Shown: positions 333 through 36,133 of the stretch, piece by piece
Layout of the letters: each line of letters begins with the position of its first letter
How positions within the stretch are numbered: position 1 is the stretch's first letter
Assembly: GCA_016928915.1 (NCBI GenBank)
Contig: JAFGJT010000008.1
Location: 71,546-111,545 of the forward strand
Direction: 5' to 3'
Source of the DNA: Candidatus Peregrinibacteria bacterium
GTDB lineage: Bacteria; Patescibacteriota; Gracilibacteria; UBA1369; PNNO01
Length of the DNA stretch: 40,000 bases
Program-made: the position numbers and the translations under genes
Notes under the pieces: generated by a model
The model's input: the letters and a program-made list of their open reading frames with translations, nothing else
The model's database searches: none
Told to the model about the DNA's origin: nothing

Positions 333-762
333 TTTTGTTACTCGGTAAAAATATCGGATTACAGACAAATTTATATCAAAAACAGTGCGGAAAGTCTAAC
401 AGTGAAGATTTATTATTAGAGAATAATTGATTAAACGACAGGCTTAAACCAGTGTTGATCTTAATTTTAATTTGAATTGCTTACTTAACGAACTTGCCAC
501 CCTTGACATATTTGAAAAACTTTTCAACTTAACGGCAATGTTGAAATGATAATTTTTGTTATTAAATAAACAAAAAACAATGAATAAATTTTTTAACAAA
601 CCCAGCCCTGGGCCGGAATTTTTTTGCAGAAAAAGTGCGTATAGTAAAAAAACGGTCGGACCATTTTTATAATTTTTTTCTCCGAGGATCGAATTCTTTC
701 TTGTAGATTATTGGCTTTGTTTAGTTAAAAACCCGCCATGCCCCAAAAACAGGTTCAAGCTA

Positions 763-1185
763 TTATCTCTTGCTGAACTGTGGAGCTCGTCTTGCTCTTT
801 TTAAGCCGAATTTCTTTCTTTCTTTGATTCTTGCGTCGCGTGTTAAAAAGCCGGCTTTTTTTAAGGTTGCGCGGAGCATCTCATCATATGCGAGCAGAGC
901 CCTTGCAACACCATGCCTTATGGCATCGGCCTGTGCAATTATTCCTCCGCCAAGAACTTTTACGCTTAAATCAACCTTTTTTGCCATTCCGCATAATTCA
1001 AGCGGGGACATAATGGCATCCTGCTGCACTTTTTGCTGGCAGAATTCTTTTAAAGGTTTTTCATTGATTTTAATTTCACCTTTTCCATCCGAAAAAAGTC
1101 TTACTCTTGCAACAGATGTTTTGCGTTTGCCTGTTGCGCTGTAAAATTTATTTTCCTTCTTTTTTGCTTTAGGTTGTGCTGGCAT
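763..1185 (-). CDS. rpsI: 30S ribosomal protein S9
   Basis: The 140-aa ORF ends in ...RDARIKERKKFGLKRARRAPQFSKR, the typical S9 C-terminus, and follows rplM as in the conserved rplM-rpsI pair. Confidence 0.95.
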   Translation of the reverse strand: MPAQPKAKKKENKFYSATGKRKTSVARVRLFSDGKGEIKINEKPLKEFCQQKVQQDAIMSPLELCGMAKKVDLSVKVLGGGIIAQADAIRHGVARALLAYDEMLRATLKKAGFLTRDARIKERKKFGLKRARRAPQFSKR

Positions 1186-1658: not shown

Positions 1659-1717
1659 TGGGGGATGGAACCTTAAAGACGGGTTCCGGGGGCCGCTTGT
1701 AGCCCGTGGACGGGCTA
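1659..1717 (-). repeat. Bipartite stop-codon hairpin element, copy at the rplQ 3' end
   Basis: The RNA reads UAGCCCG-UCCA-CGGGCUA (1700..1717; the UAG is the rplQ stop), then CAAGCGGCCCC and a second hairpin GGAACC...GGUUCC. Confidence 0.6.
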
Positions 1718-3705: not shown

Positions 3706-3740
3706 TTATTATGATGTTAAGTTAACTTAATTGATTATGA

Positions 3741-3798
3741 AGAATGAAGATTTCGGCCTTGGAAATACAGGTGCCGAAAGTAGCCCTGGGAAGGGCTA
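3741..3798 (-). repeat. Bipartite stop-codon hairpin element, copy at the rpsK 3' end
   Basis: UAGCCCU-UCCC-AGGGCUA (3781..3798; the UAG is the rpsK stop), then UUUCGGC...GCCGAAA, then the flank AAUCUUCAUUCU that is shared with the rpsN copy. Confidence 0.65.
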
Positions 3799-4239: not shown

Positions 4240-4286
4240 ATAATTATTTAAGATTTAAGTATTAAGTTTTAAGTGAAGAAAATTCC

Positions 4287-4346
4287 GGGGAACGCGGCCC
4301 TATTTTTTTAAATGCGGGGGCCACTTATAGCCGTAAGAACGGCTCT
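4287..4346 (-). repeat. Bipartite hairpin element, distal tandem copy downstream of rpsM
   Basis: AGCCGU-UCUU-ACGGCU (4329..4344), UAAGUG, GUGGCCC...GGGCCGC, then GUUCCCC, which is shared with the tuf copy. Confidence 0.6.
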
Positions 4347-4360
4347 TGTTTTTATAATAT

Positions 4361-4402
4361 CGCGGCCTTAGTTGGCCGCCGGGAGCCGTAAGAACGGCTC
4401 TA
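4361..4402 (-). repeat. Bipartite stop-codon hairpin element, proximal copy at the rpsM 3' end
   Basis: UA-GAGCCGU-UCUU-ACGGCUC (4383..4402; the UAG is the rpsM stop and its G is the first stem base), then CCGGC-GCGGCC-AACUAA-GGCCGC. Confidence 0.65.
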
Positions 4403-4774: not shown

Positions 4775-4843
4775 ATATTATTACTTTTAACGATTAACAT
4801 TTGACATTTGACAAGTTGACATGTGGTTTTGAAACGGCCACCG

Positions 4844-4957
4844 CTACCCCTGTCTTTGTTTGTGCTTTTTAGTTTTGCAGATCACGCGAATTACACCCTT
4901 TCGGCGTATTATTTTGCATTTGTCACATATTTTTTTTACCGATGATCTGACTTTCAT
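4844..4957 (-). CDS. rpmJ: 50S ribosomal protein L36 (not in the ORF track, too short)
   Basis: Manual translation gives [37 protein letters not shown], with the canonical L36 zinc ligands (C,C,C,H). It sits between infA and rpsM. Confidence 0.9.
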
Positions 4958-5528: not shown

Positions 5529-6428
5529 ATGTCCGAAAAGAAAAAAATAAAAAAAACTCTCGGAATAGGACTTGGAGGCGGGGGCGCTAGAGGTTTTGCC
5601 CATATTGGAATACTTGAAGTCCTTGAAGAAAACGGTATAAAGCCGGATTTTATTGCAGGAACAAGCATGGGTGCGGTAATTGCGGGTTTGTATGCCGTTG
5701 GATATTCAATACAGCGAATTAAAGAAATAGCGATAAATTTTAAAAACATTGAAATTATTCCCACCAGGTATCTTAATCTTTTGCACGAAAGCCTTTTAAA
5801 GTCGGACATTATTATTGAGGCCTTAAACCAGCTTTTTGACGGCAAAACTTTTAAGGACTGCAAGATTCCTTTTTATACCGTTGCAATTGATCTTGAAAGC
5901 GGCAAAGAAATTATGTTTAATAAAGGGCCTTTAAATAAAGCAATTCTTGCCTCCGTTTCAATTCCGATTATATTTCCGCCCACTTTTCATGAAGACAGAT
6001 ATCTTATAGACGGCGGTATACTTGAGAATGTTCCTTTAAAAGATATAAGAGCATTGTATAAACCGGATGTCTTGATCGGATCTAAAATCATCAATTATAC
6101 ATCAAGGCAATATATATCGGGGATGGTTTATGCAAAATATCAGCAGGTAAAATATGAATCATTGTTTAAAAAAGTAAATTTTATTGAAAATTTTGTAAAC
6201 AATACTAAAAAAGATCTGCATCTGCTTGTGGGGATTGCTCTAAGGGCAATGGATATTGCATCAAAGGACAACACCGACAAAAGAATTCTGGAGGCTAAGC
6301 CCGATATTTTGCTTGAACCTAACATTGATTGTGGTCTTCTTGAATTCGATAAAGCAGGAATTGCAATTGAGGAGGGCAGAAAGGCAATGTTTAAAGAACT
6401 TCCGAAACTTAAAGAATTACTTGGTTAA
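5529..6428 (+). CDS. Patatin-like phospholipase (RssA/PNPLA family)
   Basis: Oxyanion glycine loop GLGGGGARG, nucleophile elbow G-T-S-M-G and catalytic DGG (LIDGGILENVP). It lies on the opposite strand to the surrounding operon. Confidence 0.85.
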   Translation: MSEKKKIKKTLGIGLGGGGARGFAHIGILEVLEENGIKPDFIAGTSMGAVIAGLYAVGYSIQRIKEIAINFKNIEIIPTRYLNLLHESLLKSDIIIEALNQLFDGKTFKDCKIPFYTVAIDLESGKEIMFNKGPLNKAILASVSIPIIFPPTFHEDRYLIDGGILENVPLKDIRALYKPDVLIGSKIINYTSRQYISGMVYAKYQQVKYESLFKKVNFIENFVNNTKKDLHLLVGIALRAMDIASKDNTDKRILEAKPDILLEPNIDCGLLEFDKAGIAIEEGRKAMFKELPKLKELLG

Positions 6429-7825: not shown

Positions 7826-7880
7826 TACGAATGCCGCGCCCCTGAAATCAAGGGGGCGCTTGTAGCCCTAAGAAGGGCTA
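7826..7880 (-). repeat. Bipartite stop-codon hairpin element, copy at the secY 3' end
   Basis: The secY UAA is followed directly by UAGCCCU-UCUU-AGGGCUA (7863..7880), then CAAGC-GCGCCCC...GGGGCGC (7836..7859). Confidence 0.65.
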
Positions 7881-9179
7881 TTAATAAAACTTACTGTAAT
7901 CATGCATAACAAGCTGCGCGTTTATCTGCCTCATCAGTTCAAGTACAACACCGATAATAATAATCATTCCCGCGCCGCTTATAAGAAGCGAAACCGAACC
8001 AATTCCCAGTGTGGAAAAAAGCGATCCGGTGATCATTGGCGCTACAGCAATAAATGCAATAAAAACACCACCCCATAAACATAGCCTGTTTGATACTTTT
8101 CCGAGATGATCGGAAGTTTCTTTGCCCGGTCTTATGCCGGGAATATAACCTCCTCTTTTTTGCAGATTTTCAGCTACTTGTTCGGGATTAAAAGTTATAC
8201 TTACATAAAAATATGTAAATGCGATAATTAAAAGGAAGTAAATAATTACATAGCCTATTGAATTTATTGAGAAATAGGTGAGAATCGCATCTCCGATTGC
8301 TTTTAAAGCGGGTGATTCGGAATGCTGAAAGAGTTGAGCCAGAAGTCCCGGGAAAGATGCCATTGAAACACCGAAGATAATCGGGATCATTCCCGCCTGA
8401 TTTACCCTGATGGGAAGTTCGGCATGATCGCTTTTACCCCGAACACCTCTGCCCGCGTAAATAATCGGAATTTTTCTCTGCCCTTCTGTAACAAGAATTA
8501 CTATTACAAGAAGAATAAGTGTGATAAGTATCATTAATACAAACGGCACGATACTTGTTGGATCAAACTGCGTCTGCGCAAGACTGGATGCGATGGCCAT
8601 AGGTATATTTGCGATAATGCCGGTAAAAATTATCATTGAAATTCCGTTTCCTATGCCGTGCTCCGAAATAAGTTCGCCGAGCCACATAAGGAATACTGTT
8701 CCCGCCGTTACTGTAAGCATAATGGGAATAATGACCGCTGGATTTTCAATTCCCTGCAGAATCGGCAGCTGTACCTGGGCGTTAATCAAAATAATCATTC
8801 CGTATGACTGAAGAAACGCGATAGGCACGGTTAACCACCTTGTATATTGGTTTAATTTTCTTCTGCCCTGCTCGCCTTCTTTTGAGAGGGATTCAAATTT
8901 CGGAACAATAACCGTTAAAAGCTGAATTATAATTGATGCGTTGATATAGGGTGAAAGACCCATAAGCAAAATGGAAAGGTTTTCCATGCTTCCTCCAGTA
9001 AGAGCGCTGAATACGCCGAGCAGCTGTGATTTGCTTACCGCCATTTTTACAGCTTCAAGATTTGCTCCCGGAATTGAAATCTGCGTGCAAAGTCTGTAAA
9101 TAATCAGAATTCCGATTGTGAAAATTATTTTTTTTCTTAAATCTTTGGAATTCCAGATTTGTTGAAGATATTTAAACAT
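7881..9179 (-). CDS. secY: Preprotein translocase subunit SecY
   Basis: The 432-aa polytopic membrane protein sits in the rplO-secY-adk position and carries typical SecY TM2/TM7 motifs. Confidence 0.95.
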   Translation of the reverse strand: MFKYLQQIWNSKDLRKKIIFTIGILIIYRLCTQISIPGANLEAVKMAVSKSQLLGVFSALTGGSMENLSILLMGLSPYINASIIIQLLTVIVPKFESLSKEGEQGRRKLNQYTRWLTVPIAFLQSYGMIILINAQVQLPILQGIENPAVIIPIMLTVTAGTVFLMWLGELISEHGIGNGISMIIFTGIIANIPMAIASSLAQTQFDPTSIVPFVLMILITLILLVIVILVTEGQRKIPIIYAGRGVRGKSDHAELPIRVNQAGMIPIIFGVSMASFPGLLAQLFQHSESPALKAIGDAILTYFSINSIGYVIIYFLLIIAFTYFYVSITFNPEQVAENLQKRGGYIPGIRPGKETSDHLGKVSNRLCLWGGVFIAFIAVAPMITGSLFSTLGIGSVSLLISGAGMIIIIGVVLELMRQINAQLVMHDYSKFY

Positions 9180-11590: not shown

Positions 11591-11632
11591 GTTATGTATT
11601 AAGTAATTAAGTGATTGAGTTTTGTAAGAAAG

Positions 11633-11690
11633 AGAATGAAGATTGCGGCCCTTTAAAGCCAGGGGCCGCTTATAGCCCTAGGAAGGGCTA
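11633..11690 (-). repeat. Bipartite stop-codon hairpin element, copy at the rpsN 3' end
   Basis: The rpsN UGA is followed directly by UAGCCCU-UCCU-AGGGCUA (11673..11690), then UAAGC-GCGGCCCC...GGGCCGC (11645..11669), then AAUCUUCAUUCU. Confidence 0.65.
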
Positions 11691-11915
11691 TCACCAGCTT
11701 GATTTTGTCATGCCTGATATTTTTCCCTGCTGGGCAAGTTCACGGAGACAAATTCTGCACATGTCGAATTTCCTCAGATATCCGTGGTTGCGGCCGCATA
11801 AGGGGCAACGGTTATATACTCTTGTGGGAAATTTTGGTTTCTTTCCGGCTTCAAGAGATTTTAAATAATTCTGCTGTTTTCTGGTTGTGCTGATTCGTAA
11901 TGATTTGCGAGCCAT
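11691..11915 (-). CDS. rpsN: 30S ribosomal protein S14, zinc-binding (type Z-like); start trimmed to the ATG at 11915
   Basis: MARKSLRIS...[38 protein letters not shown] has CxxC...CxxC. The longer track ORF would overlap rplE. Confidence 0.9.
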
Positions 11916-18164: not shown

Positions 18165-18267
18165 TTTATTAGAGGTTATAGAAGTCCGAAGATCTTAGTG
18201 TAATGATTCCTTTTTGGAAGGAGCCCTCGAACCCTTTAAAACAACATAAAATTAATATTGCCGTCAG

Positions 18268-18296
18268 AGTATAAATAACGGGTTATTTAAAGTCAA
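18268..18296 (-). promoter_or_regulatory. Candidate promoter re-initiating the rplC...operon
   Basis: TTGACT - 17 nt - TATACT on the minus strand, about 100 nt upstream of the rplC ATG. Confidence 0.45.
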
Positions 18297-18319
18297 GAGT
18301 TTTTTGGAAAGAAAAAGAG

Positions 18320-18730
18320 CTAAAAATTAAATTTCTGAACTCTGCCTTGAGTATTTTCTCTTTGCAGGTTTGCAGCGGATTTTTTCTCCAGATATTTTTG
18401 CAACATATCCGCGCTTTCTTGAGTAAGATAAAAATATTTGATCCGTGGAATTTGAGTGTTAAATTCTATCACATCAATAGGCCTGTTGGTTTTTGTCGTT
18501 TCAACCGAATATAACTTAAAGCCGTTCTTTTTATCATTCATTGCAAGCTTATAAGGTTTGTTTTTTTGAGAAGAATTAGGATCGCTATTTACAGCATAAA
18601 GCATCTTTTCGTTGTTTTCGGGATCATTTAAATAATCCAACAATTCAAAAAAATTTATCTTAATCAGCTGCAGCTGTTCACTTATTAAAGCAGATTCGGG
18701 ATTTTCTTTTTGTGTCGGGTTTGCCGTCAT
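18320..18730 (-). CDS. Hypothetical protein, 136 aa, no recognisable domain
   Basis: The clean ORF is translationally coupled to the upstream ORF (TAA-A-ATG junction at 18734..18728). It is hydrophilic with no TM segment and no motif I recognise. Confidence 0.6.
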   Translation of the reverse strand: MTANPTQKENPESALISEQLQLIKINFFELLDYLNDPENNEKMLYAVNSDPNSSQKNKPYKLAMNDKKNGFKLYSVETTKTNRPIDVIEFNTQIPRIKYFYLTQESADMLQKYLEKKSAANLQRENTQGRVQKFNF

Positions 18731-18731
18731 T

Positions 18732-19403
18732 TTATGCGTTAAGATTTTTTTGTATGGCTTTGGTTAACGCTCTGGTTAATTGATTTTGTGTTTCAAATTC
18801 GGTTGCAGTTACAAGAGCGTTTTTTGCAAGTTCCGTTGATTTTGCAGCAATTTCTTTTATTTTTGGACCGGGAATGTTTTTTTCTTTTAATTGGGTTGCC
18901 ATATTCCTGTAAGGTTTATCTAGCGAAGCCGATCCTCCCATGGTTACAGTCATATCTTCAGATGATGAATCCGGTTTAACCCGTGCGGCTTTTAATATGA
19001 GATTCCCATAGTTTGCATAAGCCTGATTGATGATATTTTCTTTTGTAAATTTAAAATTTGTATTTTTTACTGTTTTTAATACTTTTTCCCTAAAATCGGC
19101 ATACCCTTTTGGGCCTCCTTTAGTCGCTTCTATCAAAGCTTTTCCTCCCTGAACTTTTTCATTTACTACACGGTCAATGTTTTTTGGCGCAATTACCTGT
19201 GTTATAATTTTTTTTATGTGCGGGTTTTGAATTTTACCGATTTGGTTGAGCTTTTTATTAAAGTCCGCATCCAGTTGTTTTAATTGTTTTGGGTTTAAGG
19301 TTTCAACCGCTTTCGGACCTTCCGGTCCCCGAAAGATTAGTTTAGTTTCAAAGAGTCCGCAACCGGATACGCTCAGACGGTTTAATGAATACAATGTTTT
19401 CAT
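18732..19403 (-). CDS. Hypothetical protein, 223 aa, Lys-rich, no recognisable domain
   Basis: The clean ORF has its own sigma70-like promoter (19438..19467). It lies between rpsJ and rplC where no gene is normally found. Confidence 0.6.
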   Translation of the reverse strand: MKTLYSLNRLSVSGCGLFETKLIFRGPEGPKAVETLNPKQLKQLDADFNKKLNQIGKIQNPHIKKIITQVIAPKNIDRVVNEKVQGGKALIEATKGGPKGYADFREKVLKTVKNTNFKFTKENIINQAYANYGNLILKAARVKPDSSSEDMTVTMGGSASLDKPYRNMATQLKEKNIPGPKIKEIAAKSTELAKNALVTATEFETQNQLTRALTKAIQKNLNA

Positions 19404-19423
19404 TTTGATTTTGGTTAGTTGTT

Positions 19424-19452
19424 TTGTATTTCTTTATATTATACCCTAAAAT
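19424..19452 (+). promoter_or_regulatory. Candidate promoter of the SanA/DUF218 gene (overlaps the divergent orphan-gene promoter)
   Basis: TTGTAT - 17 nt - TAAAAT on the plus strand, 40 nt upstream of the ATG at 19493. Confidence 0.3.
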
Positions 19453-19467
19453 AGGAAGAGAATGCAA
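19438..19467 (-). promoter_or_regulatory. Candidate promoter of the orphan two-gene unit
   Basis: TTGCAT - 18 nt - TATAAT on the minus strand, about 30 nt upstream of the ATG at 19403. Confidence 0.4.
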
Positions 19468-19492
19468 TAAAAGGAAGTATTAAAAAAGATTT

Positions 19493-20152
19493 ATGAGGGT
19501 CGGGATTAAGAAAATTTTGATTGTTGGTTTGTCGGTTTTTGCTGCTGCCGCGGTATTTTGTTCTGGTGTTGTTTTTTATGTGCAAAATTATGCGGCGGAA
19601 TTTATTTATTTTTATTCCGATATTGAAAATATTCCCATAAAGGATGTCGCGATTGTTTTTGGAGCATCGGTTAATCCCGATACTCTGCGGCCTTCGGATA
19701 TGCTGACCGACAGGCTTATTACGGGTGTTGAACTTTACAGGGCGGGTAAAGTGCAAAAAATTGTTATGTCGGGCGACAACAGGGTGAGTCATTATAATGA
19801 GCCTTTGGTGATGAAAAAATTCGCCGAAGATCTTGGAGTGCCGACAGAGGATATTGTGCTTGATTATGCAGGAAGGCGCACTTACGACACCTGCTATCGG
19901 GCAGTTGAGATTTTTGGCATTAAAAACGCGGTTTTAGTTACACAAAAATACCATCTGTATCGGGCTCTTTATACGTGCCGGTCATTGGGAGTTGATGCGG
20001 TGGGGGTTGATGCGGCGCGTCAGGCGTATATCGGGCAGAACTATTATGATTTCAGAGAATTTTTTGCCACTCTCAGCACGTTTTTTGATGTTAATGTGTT
20101 ACATCCCCGCCCGATTTTGGGAGAAAAAATCGATATTAATCTTCCTTACTAG
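19493..20152 (+). CDS. SanA/DUF218 (ElyC/YdcF-like) family protein with an N-terminal membrane anchor
   Basis: N-terminal TM ([23 protein letters not shown]), then VFGASV...[21 protein letters not shown]....YNEP..M......GVP...I.LDYAG..TYD, typical of SanA-type DUF218 proteins. Confidence 0.7.
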
Positions 20153-20468
20153 AAGCAAGCATTTTAATTTCAATATCAACACCTGCAGGAAGGCTTAAGT
20201 TTGAAAGTGATTCGATTGTTTTTGGTGTGCTTTCCGTTATATCGATCAGTCTTTTGTGAGTCCGGATCTCAAACTGGTCGCGTGAATTTTTGTGTACAAA
20301 AGTTGAGCGATTAACTGTAACTTTTTCAATTTTTGTAGGAAGAGGGATAGGTCCGTTTATAATTGCACCGGTTCTGATTGCCGTATCAATAATTAATTTT
20401 GCGCTGTCATCAATGATTTTGTGGTCGTAAGCGCGCAGTTTGATTCTGATTTTTTGCTTTGCAGCCAT
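20136..20468 (-). CDS. rpsJ: 30S ribosomal protein S10
   Basis: [72 protein letters not shown] matches S10. Confidence 0.95.
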
Positions 20469-31022: not shown

Positions 31023-31050
31023 AAAAAAAACCCCCGCCTTGCGGTGGGGG
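31023..31050 (-). terminator. Rho-independent terminator downstream of tuf
   Basis: The minus-strand RNA CCCCCACC-GCAA-GGCGGGGG (8-bp GC stem with one A.C mismatch, GNRA-like loop) is followed by U8 (31023..31030). Confidence 0.7.
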
Positions 31051-31081
31051 CAACTAGGACTTACTCTAAATGCGAATTTTT

Positions 31082-31130
31082 GGGGAACGCGGCCTTGGTC
31101 GGCCGCTAAGGAACACGAAGACGTGTTCTA
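31082..31130 (-). repeat. Bipartite stop-codon hairpin element, copy at the tuf 3' end (stem sequence replaced, structure kept)
   Basis: UA-GAACACG-UCUU-CGUGUUC (31111..31130; the UAG is the tuf stop), then CUUA-GCGGCC-GACCAA-GGCCGC (31089..31106), then GUUCCCC. Confidence 0.6.
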
Positions 31131-32321
31131 CTCCACAATCTTTGTTACAACACCTGAACCTACCGTTCTTCCGCCTTCACGGATAGCAAATCTTGTTCCT
31201 TCGTCCATGGCGATAGGAGCGCCAAGTGCTACATTGAACTTTAGGTTGTCGCCGGGCATAACCATCTCAACATCAGCCGGTAATTCCACTGAACCGGTTA
31301 CATCTGTTGTTCTGATATAGAACTGTGGTTTATAACCTTTAAAGAATGGAGTGTGTCGTCCGCCTTCTTCTTTTGTCAGGATATAAACTTCAGCCTCGAA
31401 TTTTGTATGCGGCTTGATTGTTCCGGGTTTTGCGCAAACCTGTCCTCTTTCAATATCGTCACGTTCAATACCTCTAAGCAACAGCCCAACATTGTCTCCG
31501 GCGCGGCCTTCGTCGAGAAGTTTCTTGAACATTTCAACACCTGTTACAACTACTTTTCTTGTTGGCTTAATGCCTACGATTTCAACTTCATCATTGATTT
31601 TTACTATACCCTGGTCAACACGACCCGTAGCAACTGTTCCTCTTCCTTTAATTGAGAATACATCCTCAACCGGCATAAGGAATGGTTTATCAAGATCGCG
31701 TTTTGGTTCCGGAACGTATGTATCTAATGTTTCAAGTAATTTTACGATTGGTTCGGCATCAGGTCCGTTTGGATTTTCAAGAGCTTTTAAAGCAGAACCC
31801 CTGATAATCGGAGTTTCATCTCCAGGATATCCGTATTTTTTAAGAAGATCGCGCACTTCCATTTCAGCAAGTTCCGCAACTTCAGGATCCGCAACGTCAA
31901 TTTTATTTAAGAAAACAATAATATGTGGAACATTCACCTGGTGAGCCAAAAGAATGTGTTCGCGTGTCTGAGGCATAGGGCCGTCGGCTGCCGATACAAC
32001 AAGAATAGCACAGTCCATTTGGGCTGCTCCGGTAATCATGTTCTTTACATAGTCGGCGTGTCCCGGGCAGTCTACGTGCGCATAGTGTCTGTTTGCAGTT
32101 GTATACTCCTGGTGGGAAGTTGCGATTGTAATACCGCGCTCTTTTTCTTCAGGTGCATTGTCGATTGCGTCGAATGCAATCGCTTTGTTGCTTCCTCCGA
32201 ATTTAGCGGCGGCAACAGCTGTAATAGCTGAAGTAAGAGTTGTTTTACCATGATCTACGTGACCGATTGTTCCCACGTTTACGTGCGGTTTGCTTCGGTC
32301 AAATTTTTCTTGTTCTGCCAT
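31128..32321 (-). CDS. tuf: Elongation factor Tu
   Basis: [28 protein letters not shown] and NKID motifs in a 397-aa ORF. Confidence 0.97.
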
Positions 32322-32384
32322 GTGAATGGTTGGTTACTTATTAGAAAAATATATATGTAACGGAGTTTATCCGAATGCTAAGAG

Positions 32385-32413
32385 ATATTAGCGAAAGAAA
32401 TTTTCATTTGCAA
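32385..32413 (-). promoter_or_regulatory. Candidate tuf promoter
   Basis: TTGCAA - 17 nt - TAATAT on the minus strand, about 60 nt upstream of the tuf ATG. Confidence 0.4.
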
Positions 32414-32453
32414 GAGAAATTTTATTTAATAAGAATATTGAATTTAGAATACC

Positions 32454-32714
32454 ATGTTGAAGAAAAATGATTATTATGTTATAATATCAAATAAAGTAAA
32501 TAAAATGTTATTAAAAAAACAAAAAAATAAAATTCGCATTAAAGCATTAATAAAAGCTTTTCATGGTCTCAATAAAAGATTAGGAAATGAAATACTTTTG
32601 CTTGAGGAATTTAAAAAAGCATTAGATAGGTTAAAATTGAAAAGGACAGGAGAGAGTGAAGAGGAGCAATTAAAAAAGCTCGAGAAACAGATAGGAAATC
32701 TTAAAACAGAATGA
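32454..32714 (+). CDS. Hypothetical small Lys/Glu-rich coiled-coil protein (86 aa; the true start may be an internal Met)
   Basis: The ORF is coupled to the next gene (TGA-T-ATG at 32712..32718), has a heptad-like K/E/L composition and very AT-rich DNA. Confidence 0.45.
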   Translation: MLKKNDYYVIISNKVNKMLLKKQKNKIRIKALIKAFHGLNKRLGNEILLLEEFKKALDRLKLKRTGESEEEQLKKLEKQIGNLKTE

Positions 32715-32715
32715 T

Positions 32716-35187
32716 ATGGGAAATCCAAATGTATTTCATAAGAAGGTTGAAAAAGAGATCGCTGCTTTAAAATTGAATGAAAAACCAAAAGAAAAGGGTA
32801 CAAAGGAAGAGCTGCTCAAAGAAAAAGCAAAATATGAAAAACTTAAGGATAAACTTAAAGAATTAAAGAAAAAGCTTAAAGCGACAATGCCAAAATACAC
32901 AGAAGATCAGAGGATAACTGAAAAAGAAGCAAATGAAATTTTTAAATCAATTTCACCAGAATTACTAAAAGAGCTCGGAATTGAAAATTCGTTGCATCTT
33001 ATGAATTTTACGGGGATTTATTCGATATCAGAACAGAAATTGTATATGGAGATTAATGATAAGCTTATAACTAATCCAAAAGAGCTTTTTAAAAATGTTG
33101 CTGTTTTTAAAAACGCCCCATGGGCTTTTGAAGTGCTTTGTGAAGCAATATTTAGAAATCCTACAGATTGTTCGGAAGAGACATTTGAAAATATTAAATT
33201 ATTTATAGAAAAATCCTGGGCAATAAATATTGTCAGCCTTGCGGCACCTTTTTGTCCGGATGAAGCTGTGAGAAATTATTCACTTTATAAAAAATTAACA
33301 GGATCGAATGAGATTTTTAAAATGGTTGCCTCATTAGCTGATGGAAGTTGTTTATTTGATTGCCTTGAAGATTTTATAAATGCTTCTTTTGCAAAAGACA
33401 TTTTACAAAGTAAATTTCTAAAAGACCCCGAATCTTCGTTTCTTGCATTTAGTAAAATTGATAAATATAGTCATATGCCATGGGCAGAAGAAATAATTAA
33501 ATCAGCTATAGATGTAACGCCAAATGAAAATTTTGAAGATTTTTTTAAAATATTAAAGAATAAAAATCTTCCACATTTAAAAGAGATTGTAATTTACGCA
33601 ATAAACAAAAAAGTAGACTATTTTTTAACGAATTATTTTACTGAGAAAGAAAAATATAAAGATATTGTAAATGAAAAAGATGTATTAAATATTTTCATAA
33701 ATCATTTCATAAACGATCCTTCGCTGGCCATTAAATATTATCCTTTATATAAGGATATGCCGTACGCAAAAAAAATTATCCAATCAGTTAGTCATTTAAT
33801 AAATAAGAATGATTTGCCGATTTTAAATGACGATTTCCCTGAACTGGTCCCTGAAGAACAGAAGAATGTACTGAAAATATTGGATAGATCTCCTGAAAAA
33901 GCTTTTACTTGGCTGGAGGCATATGAAAAACAACCTTATGCAAAAAATATATTGATTCGCGCAGCTATAAAATATCCTAAATCAGCTATTATATATTTTA
34001 AAAATTATAAAGACAAAATTTATGCACAAGAAATTTTAGAAACAGCTATAAAAGCTATAGATGGTAAATCATTGAATGAAGGTTTTCTGTTCAAATCGGC
34101 ATATGCTTCTATAAAATTTTTAAAATCCAAAACAGAAAAGTATTTAATATCACTGCTTAATTCTAAAATGAAAGATTATAAAAAGTTTATTGATGATATT
34201 TTGGGAAATACGATTCAATATACTATTAATTCAGAGTTTAAAAATATTAAACCTAAAGCTGGAGAAATTGAGGGGAGAAGTAAACAGTCGATAGATCTTT
34301 TTTGGAATGACCCTTCTGTCAAAAAAGTTCTAAAGATTCCATTTAAATGGATAATTATTAATAAATTTGTTAAATCTGCTGAAAAAAATGATTTACGTTT
34401 AATGGTAGCTCGTAATTTATATTTTCAAAATAAAAAAATAACATTTATAAATGTACAAACAGAGCTCAAACGTATTCTTGAACAACCCGAAGAATATAAG
34501 GACACCCCAGTTTTTAAAGGCCGAAAAGTACTAATGATGGCCCATAATGAAAAATGGGCTAATAATACATATAGATTTGGATGTACTGGTTTAATGGAAA
34601 ATATAAAAAAACAGGGTGGAAAAATTCAGTTATTTAGAGAGGAATCCAATATGGAGGGAAAAATTATACATAAGAAAAAAAATATTTTAAAAGCCATAAC
34701 AAATACTCCGCCTCCTTTAACAATTTATTTTGATGCACACGGAGCACCTGATGGTATTTATTTTTCAAACAAGTCTACTATTCATATAAACCAATCTGAA
34801 TTGGTGGAAGCATTAAAAAAAAGGAATGAAAAATATGCTAACGAACCCACTCCTATAATAATCTATGATCAATGTAATTCCAGTAAGTTTTTAAGGGGGG
34901 TTTATCAAAAATTAAAATTTTTTCCTAAGCCTATTTCAATTGGGACATCAGAATATGGGCAATTGGGATTTTCAGGAACTTCGGATGAAATTTTTATGTT
35001 TAAAGACAATAAAACCCATCCTATAACACTAAAAAATATTATATTAAATTCCAGACAAGTATATACTTTTAATTCTGTGATTTATATACCTTCAAAAAAA
35101 GGTCGTATTATGCAGGTTGCGGAAAAGAAAAGAAAAAAACAAAGAAAAACTATAGGACAAAACGAATCAGAAAAAGCAAATGCTTAA
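32716..35187 (+). CDS. Hypothetical 823-aa protein: N-terminal coiled coil, helical repeat region, C-terminal putative caspase-fold (clan CD-like) cysteine peptidase domain
   Basis: It contains repeats of [PS]-[WYF]-A-x-x-[IV]-[ILV] (residues 135, 167, 225, 255, 349, 407, 435). The C-terminal region shows beta-strand-H-G (LTIYFDAHG, His675 at 34738..34740) and beta-strand-C (IIIYDQCNS, Cys720 at 34873..34875), 45 residues apart. Confidence 0.6.
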   Translation: MGNPNVFHKKVEKEIAALKLNEKPKEKGTKEELLKEKAKYEKLKDKLKELKKKLKATMPKYTEDQRITEKEANEIFKSISPELLKELGIENSLHLMNFTGIYSISEQKLYMEINDKLITNPKELFKNVAVFKNAPWAFEVLCEAIFRNPTDCSEETFENIKLFIEKSWAINIVSLAAPFCPDEAVRNYSLYKKLTGSNEIFKMVASLADGSCLFDCLEDFINASFAKDILQSKFLKDPESSFLAFSKIDKYSHMPWAEEIIKSAIDVTPNENFEDFFKILKNKNLPHLKEIVIYAINKKVDYFLTNYFTEKEKYKDIVNEKDVLNIFINHFINDPSLAIKYYPLYKDMPYAKKIIQSVSHLINKNDLPILNDDFPELVPEEQKNVLKILDRSPEKAFTWLEAYEKQPYAKNILIRAAIKYPKSAIIYFKNYKDKIYAQEILETAIKAIDGKSLNEGFLFKSAYASIKFLKSKTEKYLISLLNSKMKDYKKFIDDILGNTIQYTINSEFKNIKPKAGEIEGRSKQSIDLFWNDPSVKKVLKIPFKWIIINKFVKSAEKNDLRLMVARNLYFQNKKITFINVQTELKRILEQPEEYKDTPVFKGRKVLMMAHNEKWANNTYRFGCTGLMENIKKQGGKIQLFREESNMEGKIIHKKKNILKAITNTPPPLTIYFDAHGAPDGIYFSNKSTIHINQSELVEALKKRNEKYANEPTPIIIYDQCNSSKFLRGVYQKLKFFPKPISIGTSEYGQLGFSGTSDEIFMFKDNKTHPITLKNIILNSRQVYTFNSVIYIPSKKGRIMQVAEKKRKKQRKTIGQNESEKANA

Positions 35188-35236
35188 TATTATTCTTTGA
35201 CTTAAGCGCGTTTTGAAACTCCGGCTCTTTTGGCGA

Positions 35237-36133
35237 TTATTTTGAAAGAACGCATGTGATTTGTTTTACAAGAAGCTCATCCAGTACGGGCAGACCGGTA
35301 AGGAATTTTAATACCGGGTTATTCCATTTTTCGTTAAAATAGTAGGAACATTTTATATTATTATTTTTTCTTAGATTTTTGAGGATTTTTTTAAATTTGC
35401 GTGTGGAAATATGGTTCAGATAAGTGAATTTTTCTTTTTCGTTAATTTTGCCGATTCTGAAATTGATTCGTTCTTGACCGTCCGGCAGATTCTGCACCAG
35501 TTTTTTGTATAATTTTATGCGAAATTGTTCGGTGGTAAAAACATGAAGCCACGGAATTGATATCACATCGGTAAGATGGTGCCCGTATGCATGATAGTAT
35601 GTGGCTAAGTTTATACATATGCTGCCTCCGGGGCGTATTACTCTTGAGGCTTCTTTAAGCGCTTTTTCGGGATTAGGTATGTGTTCAAGCGCATCATTTA
35701 GAAAAACAACATCAAAGGAGTTGTCTTTAAATGGAAGTTCTTTTGCGCTTGCCACCTTGAATTTTATTTTTTCCGATAAATTTTTTTCCGCTGCAAATTT
35801 TTTTGCCTGATCAATAAAATTTTTAGAAATATCAATACCGGTCATTGTTTTTAGTTCGGTATTTTCTGCAAGCCAGATGCTTTTTCCTCCTCCTCCGCAT
35901 GCGATATCAAGAACTTCTTTATCATTTAATGATTTCAAAAAGTCCAAATTGCCGCCTTCGAAAGCCTTAAAAGCCGTCTGATATGCAAGATTATATTCAA
36001 AATCAGTATAAGATAATTTCTGATCCTTGTTTTTTTTATCATTAAAAGGATGGGGAAGCGGACGAAAACGTTTATTTATAAAAAGCACCAGCTTTTCGCC
36101 CAAAGTAAAATTTTGAACTGAACTTTCTTTCAT
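35237..36133 (-). CDS. Class I SAM-dependent methyltransferase (Methyltransf_11/25-like)
   Basis: Motif I VLDIACGGGGKS and post-I/II DVVFLNDALEHIPNPEKALKEASRVIRPGG. The start lies 12 nt after the fusA stop. Confidence 0.8.
   Translation of the reverse strand: MKESSVQNFTLGEKLVLFINKRFRPLPHPFNDKKNKDQKLSYTDFEYNLAYQTAFKAFEGGNLDFLKSLNDKEVLDIACGGGGKSIWLAENTELKTMTGIDISKNFIDQAKKFAAEKNLSEKIKFKVASAKELPFKDNSFDVVFLNDALEHIPNPEKALKEASRVIRPGGSICINLATYYHAYGHHLTDVISIPWLHVFTTEQFRIKLYKKLVQNLPDGQERINFRIGKINEKEKFTYLNHISTRKFKKILKNLRKNNNIKCSYYFNEKWNNPVLKFLTGLPVLDELLVKQITCVLSK

Follow-up and report, generated by a model that had tools for sequence, protein, structure and literature searches.

A family of TAG-tagged two-hairpin elements at the stop codons of translation genes in an uncultured member of the Peregrinibacteria

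The stretch of DNA analysed here, called the window throughout, comprises 40 kb of contig JAFGJT010000008.1 (positions 71,546 to 111,545) and is a minus-strand translation-gene region of an uncultured member of the Peregrinibacteria, within the candidate phyla radiation (CPR). The RpoA encoded in it has relatives at 94% to 65% identity, which are labelled Peregrinibacteria, Peribacteria or Patescibacteria, and its EF-Tu matches an NCBI protein assigned to 'Candidatus Peregrinibacteria bacterium' at 100% identity. The genes are arranged in the order fusA, tuf, an alpha-2-macroglobulin gene and others, rpsJ, three inserted genes, rplC through rpsQ, the spc and alpha genes, rplM and rpsI; the L30 gene is missing, and TAA is the stop codon of about 40 of the 46 genes. 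Seven copies of a short hairpin element lie in this region, all of them intergenic and all on the minus, i.e. transcribed, strand, at the stop codons of ribosomal-protein genes, of secY and of tuf, the gene for EF-Tu. By analogy with described elements the copies look like a lineage-specific family of palindromic modules tagged with TAG and resembling repetitive extragenic palindromic (REP) sequences.

Read 5′ to 3′ on the transcribed strand, the element consists of a TAG foot, a hairpin with a 6-7 bp stem and a UCNN loop (hairpin 1, 18 nucleotides, nt), a short linker, a GC-rich hairpin 2 (18-31 nt) and a pyrimidine-rich, G-poor tail. The TAG is present at the 5′ end of six of the seven copies, preceded by A in five and by G in one. 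An earlier annotation made by a model from the letters of the window alone (the sequence-only reading) had anchored the copies on stop codons; this was confirmed, and the connection is sharper than had been claimed, the element itself opening with TAG. For rplQ, rpsK, rpsM and tuf the TAG of the element is the stop codon itself, and at secY (TAA-TAG) and rpsN (TGA-TAG) the stop codon of the gene directly precedes it. The three stem variants of hairpin 1 listed in that annotation were read correctly, as were the loops, which are UCUU in four copies and UCCU, UCCC and UCCA in one each. In the UAGCCCU variant the entire TAG is paired in the stem, and in the GAGCCGU and GAACACG variants its G alone is. 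The two-hairpin fold is predicted in each copy, with z-scores from -1.9 to -6.1 against dinucleotide shuffles.

Re-reading of the sequence placed the seven copies on the minus strand at the coordinates that had been reported. They are described here together with their E-values in a search with covariance model R1, whose seed consisted of six copies, three from the window and three from related loci (numbered with the prefix L), and which was run with filters off. In the rplQ copy (1660..1717) the TAG stop (1715-1717) lies within hairpin 1 (1700-1717, stem UAGCCCG/CGGGCUA, loop UCCA). This copy is a mosaic, in which hairpin 1, the linker and the 5′ arm of hairpin 2 (linker and arm at 1688-1699) are followed by a different hairpin (GGAACC..GGUUCC, 1667-1687) and a C-rich tail (AUCCCCC, 1660-1666); it was not in the seed and matches R1 at E=2.5e-5. 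The GCGGCC...GGCCGC architecture that the sequence-only reading had ascribed to hairpin 2 of all copies thus does not extend to rplQ, where the 5′ arm alone is found. The rpsK copy (3741..3798) has its TAG stop (3796-3798) within hairpin 1 (3781-3798, loop UCCC), followed by hairpin 2 (UUUCGGC..GCCGAAA, 3751-3779) and a tail ending in UCUUCAUUCU (3741-3750); R1 finds it at E=4e-19, and its ortholog in L002 has compensated changes in hairpin 2. Two copies stand in a head-to-tail tandem behind rpsM. In the proximal one (4359..4402; E=3e-15) the G of the TAG stop (4400-4402) is the first paired base of hairpin 1 (4383-4400, stem GAGCCGU/ACGGCUC, loop UCUU) and hairpin 2 is GCGGCC..GGCCGC (4362-4379), while the distal one (4287..4346; E=8e-11, not in the seed) comprises hairpin 1 (4327-4344), hairpin 2 with a 17-nt loop (GUGGCCC..GGGCCGC, 4294-4324) and the tail GUUCCCC (4287-4293).

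In the secY copy (7826..7883; E=1e-12, not in the seed) the stop codon TAA (7881-7883) is followed by the TAG that opens hairpin 1 (7863-7880, loop UCUU), and hairpin 2 is GCGCCCC..GGGGCGC (7836-7859). The rpsN copy (11626..11693; E=2e-20) begins with the TGA stop (11691-11693), after which TAG opens hairpin 1 (11673-11690, loop UCCU); hairpin 2 (GCGGCCC..GGGCCGC, 11645-11669) and a G-free, pyrimidine-rich tail (11626-11644) follow, and all 28 of 28 stem bases are identical in the L008 ortholog. The tuf copy (31082..31130; E=7e-5, not in the seed), which has an ortholog in L092, carries its TAG stop at 31128-31130, hairpin 1 at 31111-31128 (stem GAACACG/CGUGUUC, loop UCUU), hairpin 2 at 31089-31106 (GCGGCC..GGCCGC) and the tail GUUCCCC at 31082-31088. 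The rpsK and rpsN copies share a 12-nt tail, and the common flanks that had been reported, AAUCUUCAUUCU at rpsK and rpsN and GCGUUCCCC at the distal rpsM copy and tuf, are present as described. The statement that the large gaps of the operon all carry the element has to be amended for the rpmJ-rpsM gap (69 nt), which holds only a weak hairpin-2-like remnant (4823..4846, minus strand): there the TAG stop of rpmJ (4844-4846), a gene at 4844-4957 that falls outside the 60-amino-acid list of open reading frames (ORFs), is followed by GCGGUGGCCGUUUCAAAACCAC. The remnant folds weakly (z=-0.97) and is unmatched by R1; it may be a decayed copy of the family.

The seven copies form one family. The hairpin-1 pattern TAGCCCKTCNNMGGGCTA has four matches on the minus strand (eight when both strands of the palindrome are counted) against 0.03 expected, and a direct-repeat search groups five of the copies independently. 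Modelling of covariance, which had been proposed as a check, recovered exactly seven copies in the window, four of them from outside the seed (E = 1e-12 to 7e-5); the remaining matches to R1 were the same copies on the opposite strand or had E > 1. No copy lies in the approximately 20 kb of non-ribosomal sequence in the window. Short GC-rich hairpins are common 3′ of genes and the rplQ copy deviates in hairpin 2, as would be expected if unrelated hairpins or ordinary terminators had come to resemble each other in independent events. This is barely credible in view of the pattern count, the matches of non-seed copies, the 12-nt tail common to rpsK and rpsN, the absence of a U-tract from every copy and the conservation of orthologous copies in relatives, and chance resemblance is ruled out by the first two of these together with the pairing test presented below. 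When Rfam 15 was searched with the window no match reached the gathering threshold, and none of four weak matches (E up to 5) overlaps an element; on seven related loci there were likewise no gathering-threshold matches.

The copies are not U-tract terminators, as the sequence-only reading had maintained in treating them as one family instead of as independent terminators. No run of U follows any copy, a scan for terminators gives no hit at a copy on the minus strand, and the next essential genes begin 40-100 nt downstream. A canonical intrinsic terminator, which does not belong to the family, is present separately 30 nt 3′ of the tuf copy (31023..31051, minus strand; GCCCCCACCGCAAGGCGGGGG, a GC-rich stem followed by eight U), which shows ordinary terminators to be in use in this organism and sets the element apart from them. 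The same succession of a stop-adjacent hairpin and a separate terminator is found at tuf in L092 and L093. The terminator behind tuf was overlooked by a simple scan owing to an internal mismatch. On the antisense (plus) strand hairpin 1 of the distal rpsM copy is followed by CTTGTTTTTA (4329-4344) and is flagged as terminator-like; this signal could stop antisense transcription or be incidental. At the end of the operon rpsI terminates with TAA-TAG, a weak hairpin and a U-run (727-765, minus strand), and its ortholog in L091 (3598-3640) reads TAA-CAG where the window has TAA-TAG, which shows that the foot of the hairpin can be TAG or CAG alike.

Further copies exist outside the window at the same gene ends in related genomes, which agrees with the sequence-only reading of a family. 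Among the close relatives (rpoA 89-94% identical in L002, L090 and L091; EF-Tu 97% identical in L092; L008 without rpoA) copies were found at rpsK, rpsM and rpsN in L002, at rpsN in L008, at rpsM, rpsK and rplQ in L090 and L091, and at tuf in L092. The only unbiased search, a metagenome-wide scan with hairpin 1 and the start of hairpin 2, gave two matches, both at ribosomal gene ends (rpsK and rpsN). R1 had no match at E below 0.3 in 80 other species of Peregrinibacteria, and a strict pattern of hairpin 1 plus linker had 0 matches in species-representative genomes, where the genus is absent or the region masked. As far as these searches tell, the sequence family is narrow and confined to the level of a genus. 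All seven window copies and all copies of the relatives are in the sense orientation; no inverted pairs of the type seen in bacterial interspersed mosaic elements (BIMEs) were found among them, the sole pair being the head-to-tail tandem at rpsM. The copies appear to be confined to translation operons and not dispersed over the genome.

The pairing test was made with 13 copies from the window and its close relatives. In their alignment 95.9% of the stem cells pair and 9 of the 14 stem pairs have changes on both sides, values reached by 0 of 500 shuffles, whereas pairing in slid controls is 29-45%. This alignment had been fitted to the model, and a hairpin at the DNA level would account for the pairing equally well. 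The earlier claim that the stem changes are compensatory is borne out by these paired changes across copies from the window and the relatives. The orthologous stems have meanwhile changed little in lineages whose synonymous sites are nearly saturated. Between the window and L002 the proteins are 89% identical and fourfold-degenerate sites 49% identical, and between the window and L008 the figures are 74% and 41%, whereas 76 of 82 bases of the orthologous stems are identical (p=2e-17 at a neutral identity of 0.49). The six differences all lie in hairpin 2 of rpsK and make up three compensated pairs. Loops, linkers and tails vary between those same orthologs; the hairpin-1 loop is nonetheless UCNN in 14 of 14 genus-level copies, with variation at positions 3 and 4. 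Given the contrast between stems and fourfold sites, the stems are, on comparative grounds, maintained by purifying selection with compensatory changes, and the constraint so deduced is on pairing and on part of the sequence. The occupation of individual sites is less stable. The secY-adk site is nearly empty in L002, the rpsN variant of L002 differs both from that of the window and from that of the more distant L008, and rpsM carries UAGCACU..AGUGCUA in L090 where the window has GAGCCGU. Such substitution of variants for each other at given sites indicates that copies exchange or replace one another.

A looser pattern emerged when the comparison was widened to the class (80 species, 83 loci). 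Strong hairpins begin 0-5 nt after the stop codon at 87 of 428 ribosomal-cluster junctions, as against 11 of 192 other co-directional junctions (p=1e-6). The distribution of these stop-adjacent hairpins over the genes is patchy, and their sequences form a separate family in each genome. L053 is an example: 12 of the 13 matches to a tail motif are on the sense strand and 11 of them follow ribosomal-cluster stop codons, the twelfth being in coding sequence and the one further match elsewhere. What the hairpins share across the class is a YAG foot, a preference for TAG and strand-specific pyrimidine tails. At 22 of 90 hairpin sites the stop is followed by TAACAG, compared with 9 of the 423 long gaps that have no hairpin (p=1e-11), TAG stops are enriched at hairpin sites (p=6e-7), and TAACAG and TAATAG are equivalent throughout. 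Of the intergenic regions with a hairpin, 26 contain ATCCC and 2 the reverse complement of this motif, while 15 contain CCCCC and none GGGGG. The spacers from the last hairpin to the next start codon contain 520 C and 79 G (3.9% G, 86 sites). Many hairpins of L005, L012, L093 and L053 have GCGAAGC or CGAAG cores (GAA triloops closed by C-G), the motif of an unusually stable mini-hairpin, and GCGAA is present in 30 of 86 hairpin-bearing intergenic regions.

Among described elements the closest kind is the GTAG-tagged REP. These are short imperfect palindromes (20-40 nt) at a distance of less than 20 bp 3′ of the upstream ORF, their TAG end is often its stop codon and they have been proposed to work as RNA elements (Di Nocera et al. 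2013, PMC3733652; for REPs see further Nunvar et al. 2010, PMC2817692). For cleavage the REP-associated tyrosine transposase (RAYT) of E. coli needs the GTAG motif and residues at the loop edge (PMC3733652). Like GTAG-tagged REPs, the elements are short GC-rich palindromic units with an (N)TAG tag at one end, placed directly 3′ of an upstream ORF and between co-directional genes with the TAG often serving as stop; they form species-specific families with tandem head-to-tail pairs and mosaics, and a role of the transcribed RNA, such as mRNA stabilisation, is proposed for both. The invariant tag and loop edge are also the positions that RAYT reads in E. coli REPs. There are differences as well. 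REPs are typically dispersed in more than 100 copies per genome, whereas the elements are seen in translation operons only, with seven copies in 40 kb and ribosomal sites alone in the metagenome scan; low copy number and restricted location are what these data point to, the basis being the 40-kb window and that scan and not a whole-genome count. They have a single orientation without inverted pairs, the tag is mostly ATAG, not GTAG, and is paired in the main variant while REP tags are unpaired, the composite unit joins two unlike hairpins to a pyrimidine tail, purifying selection on orthologous copies is strong and the host is a CPR bacterium. We therefore treat the family as a REP-like variant and do not file it as a member of the REPs. 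Literature searches gave nothing specific on REPs or stop-adjacent hairpins in CPR bacteria or Peregrinibacteria. No transposase domain was found in the non-ribosomal ORFs of the window, which is a weak test for a RAYT, and a tblastn search with E. coli RayT reached at best E=0.45 in 1.4 Mb of Peregrinibacteria loci plus the window, a small and biased sample. The sequence-only reading had spoken of REP- or MITE-like elements. The first half of this fits the GTAG-tagged REPs, while the second (miniature inverted-repeat transposable elements) is unsupported: the element consists of two independent hairpins in succession and not of one long palindrome bounded by terminal inverted repeats, no target-site duplication can be seen beside it, a comparison of occupied with unoccupied secY-adk sites yields no clean boundaries and no transposase was found in the window.

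Other systems resemble the elements in part. Intercistronic stabiliser hairpins such as the malE-malF REP of E. coli, those of the Rhodobacter puf operon and the 3′ inverted repeats of chloroplasts are likewise stable stem-loops without a U-tract between cistrons, with genes continuing downstream, and a block to 3′ exonucleases with altered stability of the upstream message would be expected in both cases; their function is backed by experiment, whereas that of the family here is deduced from sequence, and they have neither fusion to a stop codon nor the form of a multi-copy family with conserved loop and tail. REPs within 15 nt of the stop codon reportedly stall terminating ribosomes in E. 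coli and trigger trans-translation (Liang and Deutscher). The present hairpins, placed inside the stop or 0-5 nt after it, would similarly have to be melted by the terminating ribosome, but that mechanism lowers the output of the upstream gene, which is unexpected for EF-Tu and ribosomal proteins. The mycobacterial interspersed repetitive units (MIRUs) of Mycobacterium are repeats between cistrons that overlap the stop codon before them and the start codon after them. They share with the elements the position between polycistronic genes, the single orientation and the contact with the upstream stop; however, MIRUs are direct-repeat units of 40-100 bp with small ORFs for translational coupling, and the elements are hairpins without a conserved ORF that lie 40-60 nt from the next start codon. 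The ribosomal-protein leaders of Rfam are also structured RNAs within ribosomal-protein operons, and the elements lie upstream of rpsD, rpsH, rplM, rpsK and others, so that, unlike protein-specific leaders, a single motif precedes many different genes. Several further candidates were rejected. A signal for reading through UAG, of the kind of the pyrrolysine insertion sequence (PYLIS), is contradicted by the downstream frames, which lack conservation and are set apart by indels between orthologs. As mimics of the anti-Shine-Dalgarno sequence or the 16S 3′ end the GAUCC and CCUUCC tails are only loosely similar, and no Shine-Dalgarno partner precedes the next genes. GCCCU..AGGGC recalls lambda boxB on the antisense strand only and with the wrong loop length, a DNA uptake sequence would demand genome-wide over-representation, the context is wrong for an integron attC site, and the stems are too short for an RNase III site.

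The copies are transcribed within polycistronic mRNA, at the stop codons of highly expressed translation genes, and they probably act on the mRNA and not by ending transcription. Our preferred reading, put forward tentatively and at a little short of an even chance, is that they are boundaries between cistrons at the RNA level. Once the mRNA had been cleaved within the A/U-rich spacer, or its synthesis had ended further downstream, 3′-to-5′ exonucleases would be halted by the stable hairpins and C-rich tail where the upstream reading frame ends. The start region of the following gene, which is unstructured and free of G, would be insulated from upstream sequence, and the long ribosomal transcript would be split into units differing in stability. 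The constancy of the TAG foot and of UC at the edge of the loop suggests that the elements are also recognised by a sequence-specific factor, which could be an RNA-binding protein or an enzyme of the REP type. Several observations tell against such boundaries. A barrier at tuf seems redundant with the terminator 30 nt further on, which hints at another role, e.g. a binding site or a link to translation termination. A purely structural barrier needs neither an invariant UC in the loop nor stems identical in sequence across synonymous-saturated lineages. Long intergenic gaps in these operons are mostly free of hairpins (407 without, 86 with). Internal mismatches of the sense stems comprise 16 G-U and 26 A-C, which is no sign of selection at the RNA level, although base composition confounds the comparison; the antisense folds are the more stable ones (65 of 85 sites) and contain more G-U pairs, because the antisense strand is rich in G and U.

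The rival readings overlap with the boundary reading and are not mutually exclusive with it. The invariant bases could mark an operator read by a trans-acting factor of its own, which might be a ribosomal protein, an RNase or some other protein that binds RNA and which would coordinate expression of the spc, alpha and tuf units, pairing serving only as the scaffold on which the recognised bases are displayed. The identity of the stem sequence itself across saturated lineages (28 of 28 bases at rpsN between the window and L008), the UCNN loop of all 14 copies, the class-wide conservation of the YAG foot and pyrimidine tail, the restriction to translation genes including the unlinked tuf, and the retention of the tuf hairpin in spite of a close terminator would all follow. 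We nevertheless consider an operator unlikely, if well worth weighing: no candidate protein has been identified, stem sequences are quite different in other Peregrinibacteria, and the occupied junctions vary even in close relatives, as with the empty secY site of L002 and the swapped variants at rpsN and rpsM, which is unusual for a fixed circuit. That turnover is more at home with a selfish REP-type DNA element spread by a RAYT-like (IS200/IS605 Y1) enzyme that reads TAG and the loop edge on single-stranded DNA and prefers insertion just 3′ of ORFs, any effect on the host being incidental. The placement of (N)TAG and palindrome directly 3′ of an ORF, with TAG as stop, repeats the pattern of GTAG-tagged REPs (PMC3733652), the invariant features coincide with the positions read by the E. 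coli enzyme, each genome has a family of its own, the tandem at rpsM is head-to-tail, close relatives differ in presence, absence and variant at given junctions, and the rplQ copy is a mosaic. Selfish spread is still distinctly unlikely in our judgement, as orthologs are conserved far above neutral expectation, copies keep one orientation without BIME-type pairs, the sole unbiased scan matched ribosomal gene ends only and the window has no transposase, the E=0.45 for RayT coming from the limited sample described above.

Hairpins without a U-tract would also suit a factor-dependent attenuator, in which the G-poor, C-rich spacer is a loading site for Rho, or the hairpin a pause site assisted by NusA/NusG, with termination when the next cistron is untranslated and the hairpin protecting the trimmed 3′ end. 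In E. coli, Rho-terminated transcripts are trimmed back to stable stem-loops. The excess of C over G in the 86 spacers and the strand-specific C-rich tails, e.g. GAUCCCGUUCCCC, CCUUCCCC and GUUCCCC, are in line with this. Attenuation is quite improbable all the same, since the spacers of approximately 40-60 nt are short for Rho loading, essential ribosomal genes lie downstream of each copy, and G-depleted A/U/C-rich spacers also precede starts without a hairpin and so may simply be regions of Shine-Dalgarno-independent initiation. Finally, the family could be one local form of an undescribed cis-element common to the Peregrinibacteria (a stop-fused hairpin with YAG foot and a pyrimidine-rich, G-free tail) read by a conserved trans-acting factor through which the output of the translation apparatus is coordinated. 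Candidates for such a factor would be ribosome-associated proteins, RNases and REP-type enzymes that have become domesticated. This extension is speculative and we think it rather unlikely to hold. If true, it would be a regulon-wide operator at gene ends and not in leaders, in bacteria without a visible Shine-Dalgarno sequence at ribosomal-protein genes.

Some features of the gene starts and of the gene content of the window were recorded alongside. No Shine-Dalgarno sequence is visible upstream of the ribosomal-protein start codons examined. G-poor A/U/C spacers precede ribosomal-protein starts (e.g. 4240-4286, 3706-3740 and 11591-11625, minus strand) and in the window are built of the short repeated units ACUUAA and UUAACUUAA; in relatives the units are AAUUACUAAU (L005 and L012) or AUUGAC/AUUAAC (L010). 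Such repeat-built spacers may enhance translation or serve as standby sequences. The rpsM leader ATGTCAA(N)TGTCAAATGTCAAATGTTAATCGTTAAAAGTAATAATAT (4775-4822, minus strand) is identical over approximately 43 nt to L090 (about 206-255), whose rpoA is 90% identical, and is absent from L002; its repeated ATGTCAA units lie directly 5′ of the alpha-operon start, the position of the S4 operator in E. coli. Between rpsJ and rplC three non-ribosomal genes are inserted (18165-20468), two without a Pfam match and one DUF218 gene on the opposite strand, and L093 has the same arrangement. The best promoter-like site of the first half of the window, TTGACT-17-TATACT (18268-18296, minus strand), stands in front of rplC. 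A patatin-like phospholipase gene on the opposite strand (5529-6428, plus) lies between map and infA inside the ribosomal cluster and is kept in L001, L002, L005 and L007. The stretch 32001-36000 is low in GC (31% against 38-41% elsewhere in the window), and the plus-strand ORF 32716-35187, encoding 823 amino acids rich in Lys and Glu without a Pfam match, is placed between tuf and a methyltransferase gene with fusA; fusA itself has no rpsL-rpsG in front of it.

The genomes of CPR bacteria are tiny and streamlined, and their post-transcriptional gene regulation is almost wholly uncharted. Here GC-rich modules of 50-60 nt are under selection at the ends of the most highly expressed genes and relatives of the same class keep analogues of them, which suggests a real mechanism dividing or tuning the large ribosomal-protein transcript. 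The family is a concrete target for end mapping in metatranscriptomes, for which the covariance model is ready. If the elements are relatives of REPs, they would extend REP-type elements to the CPR in a domesticated form limited to particular operons; if they are bound by a factor, they would represent a new regulon-wide RNA operator.

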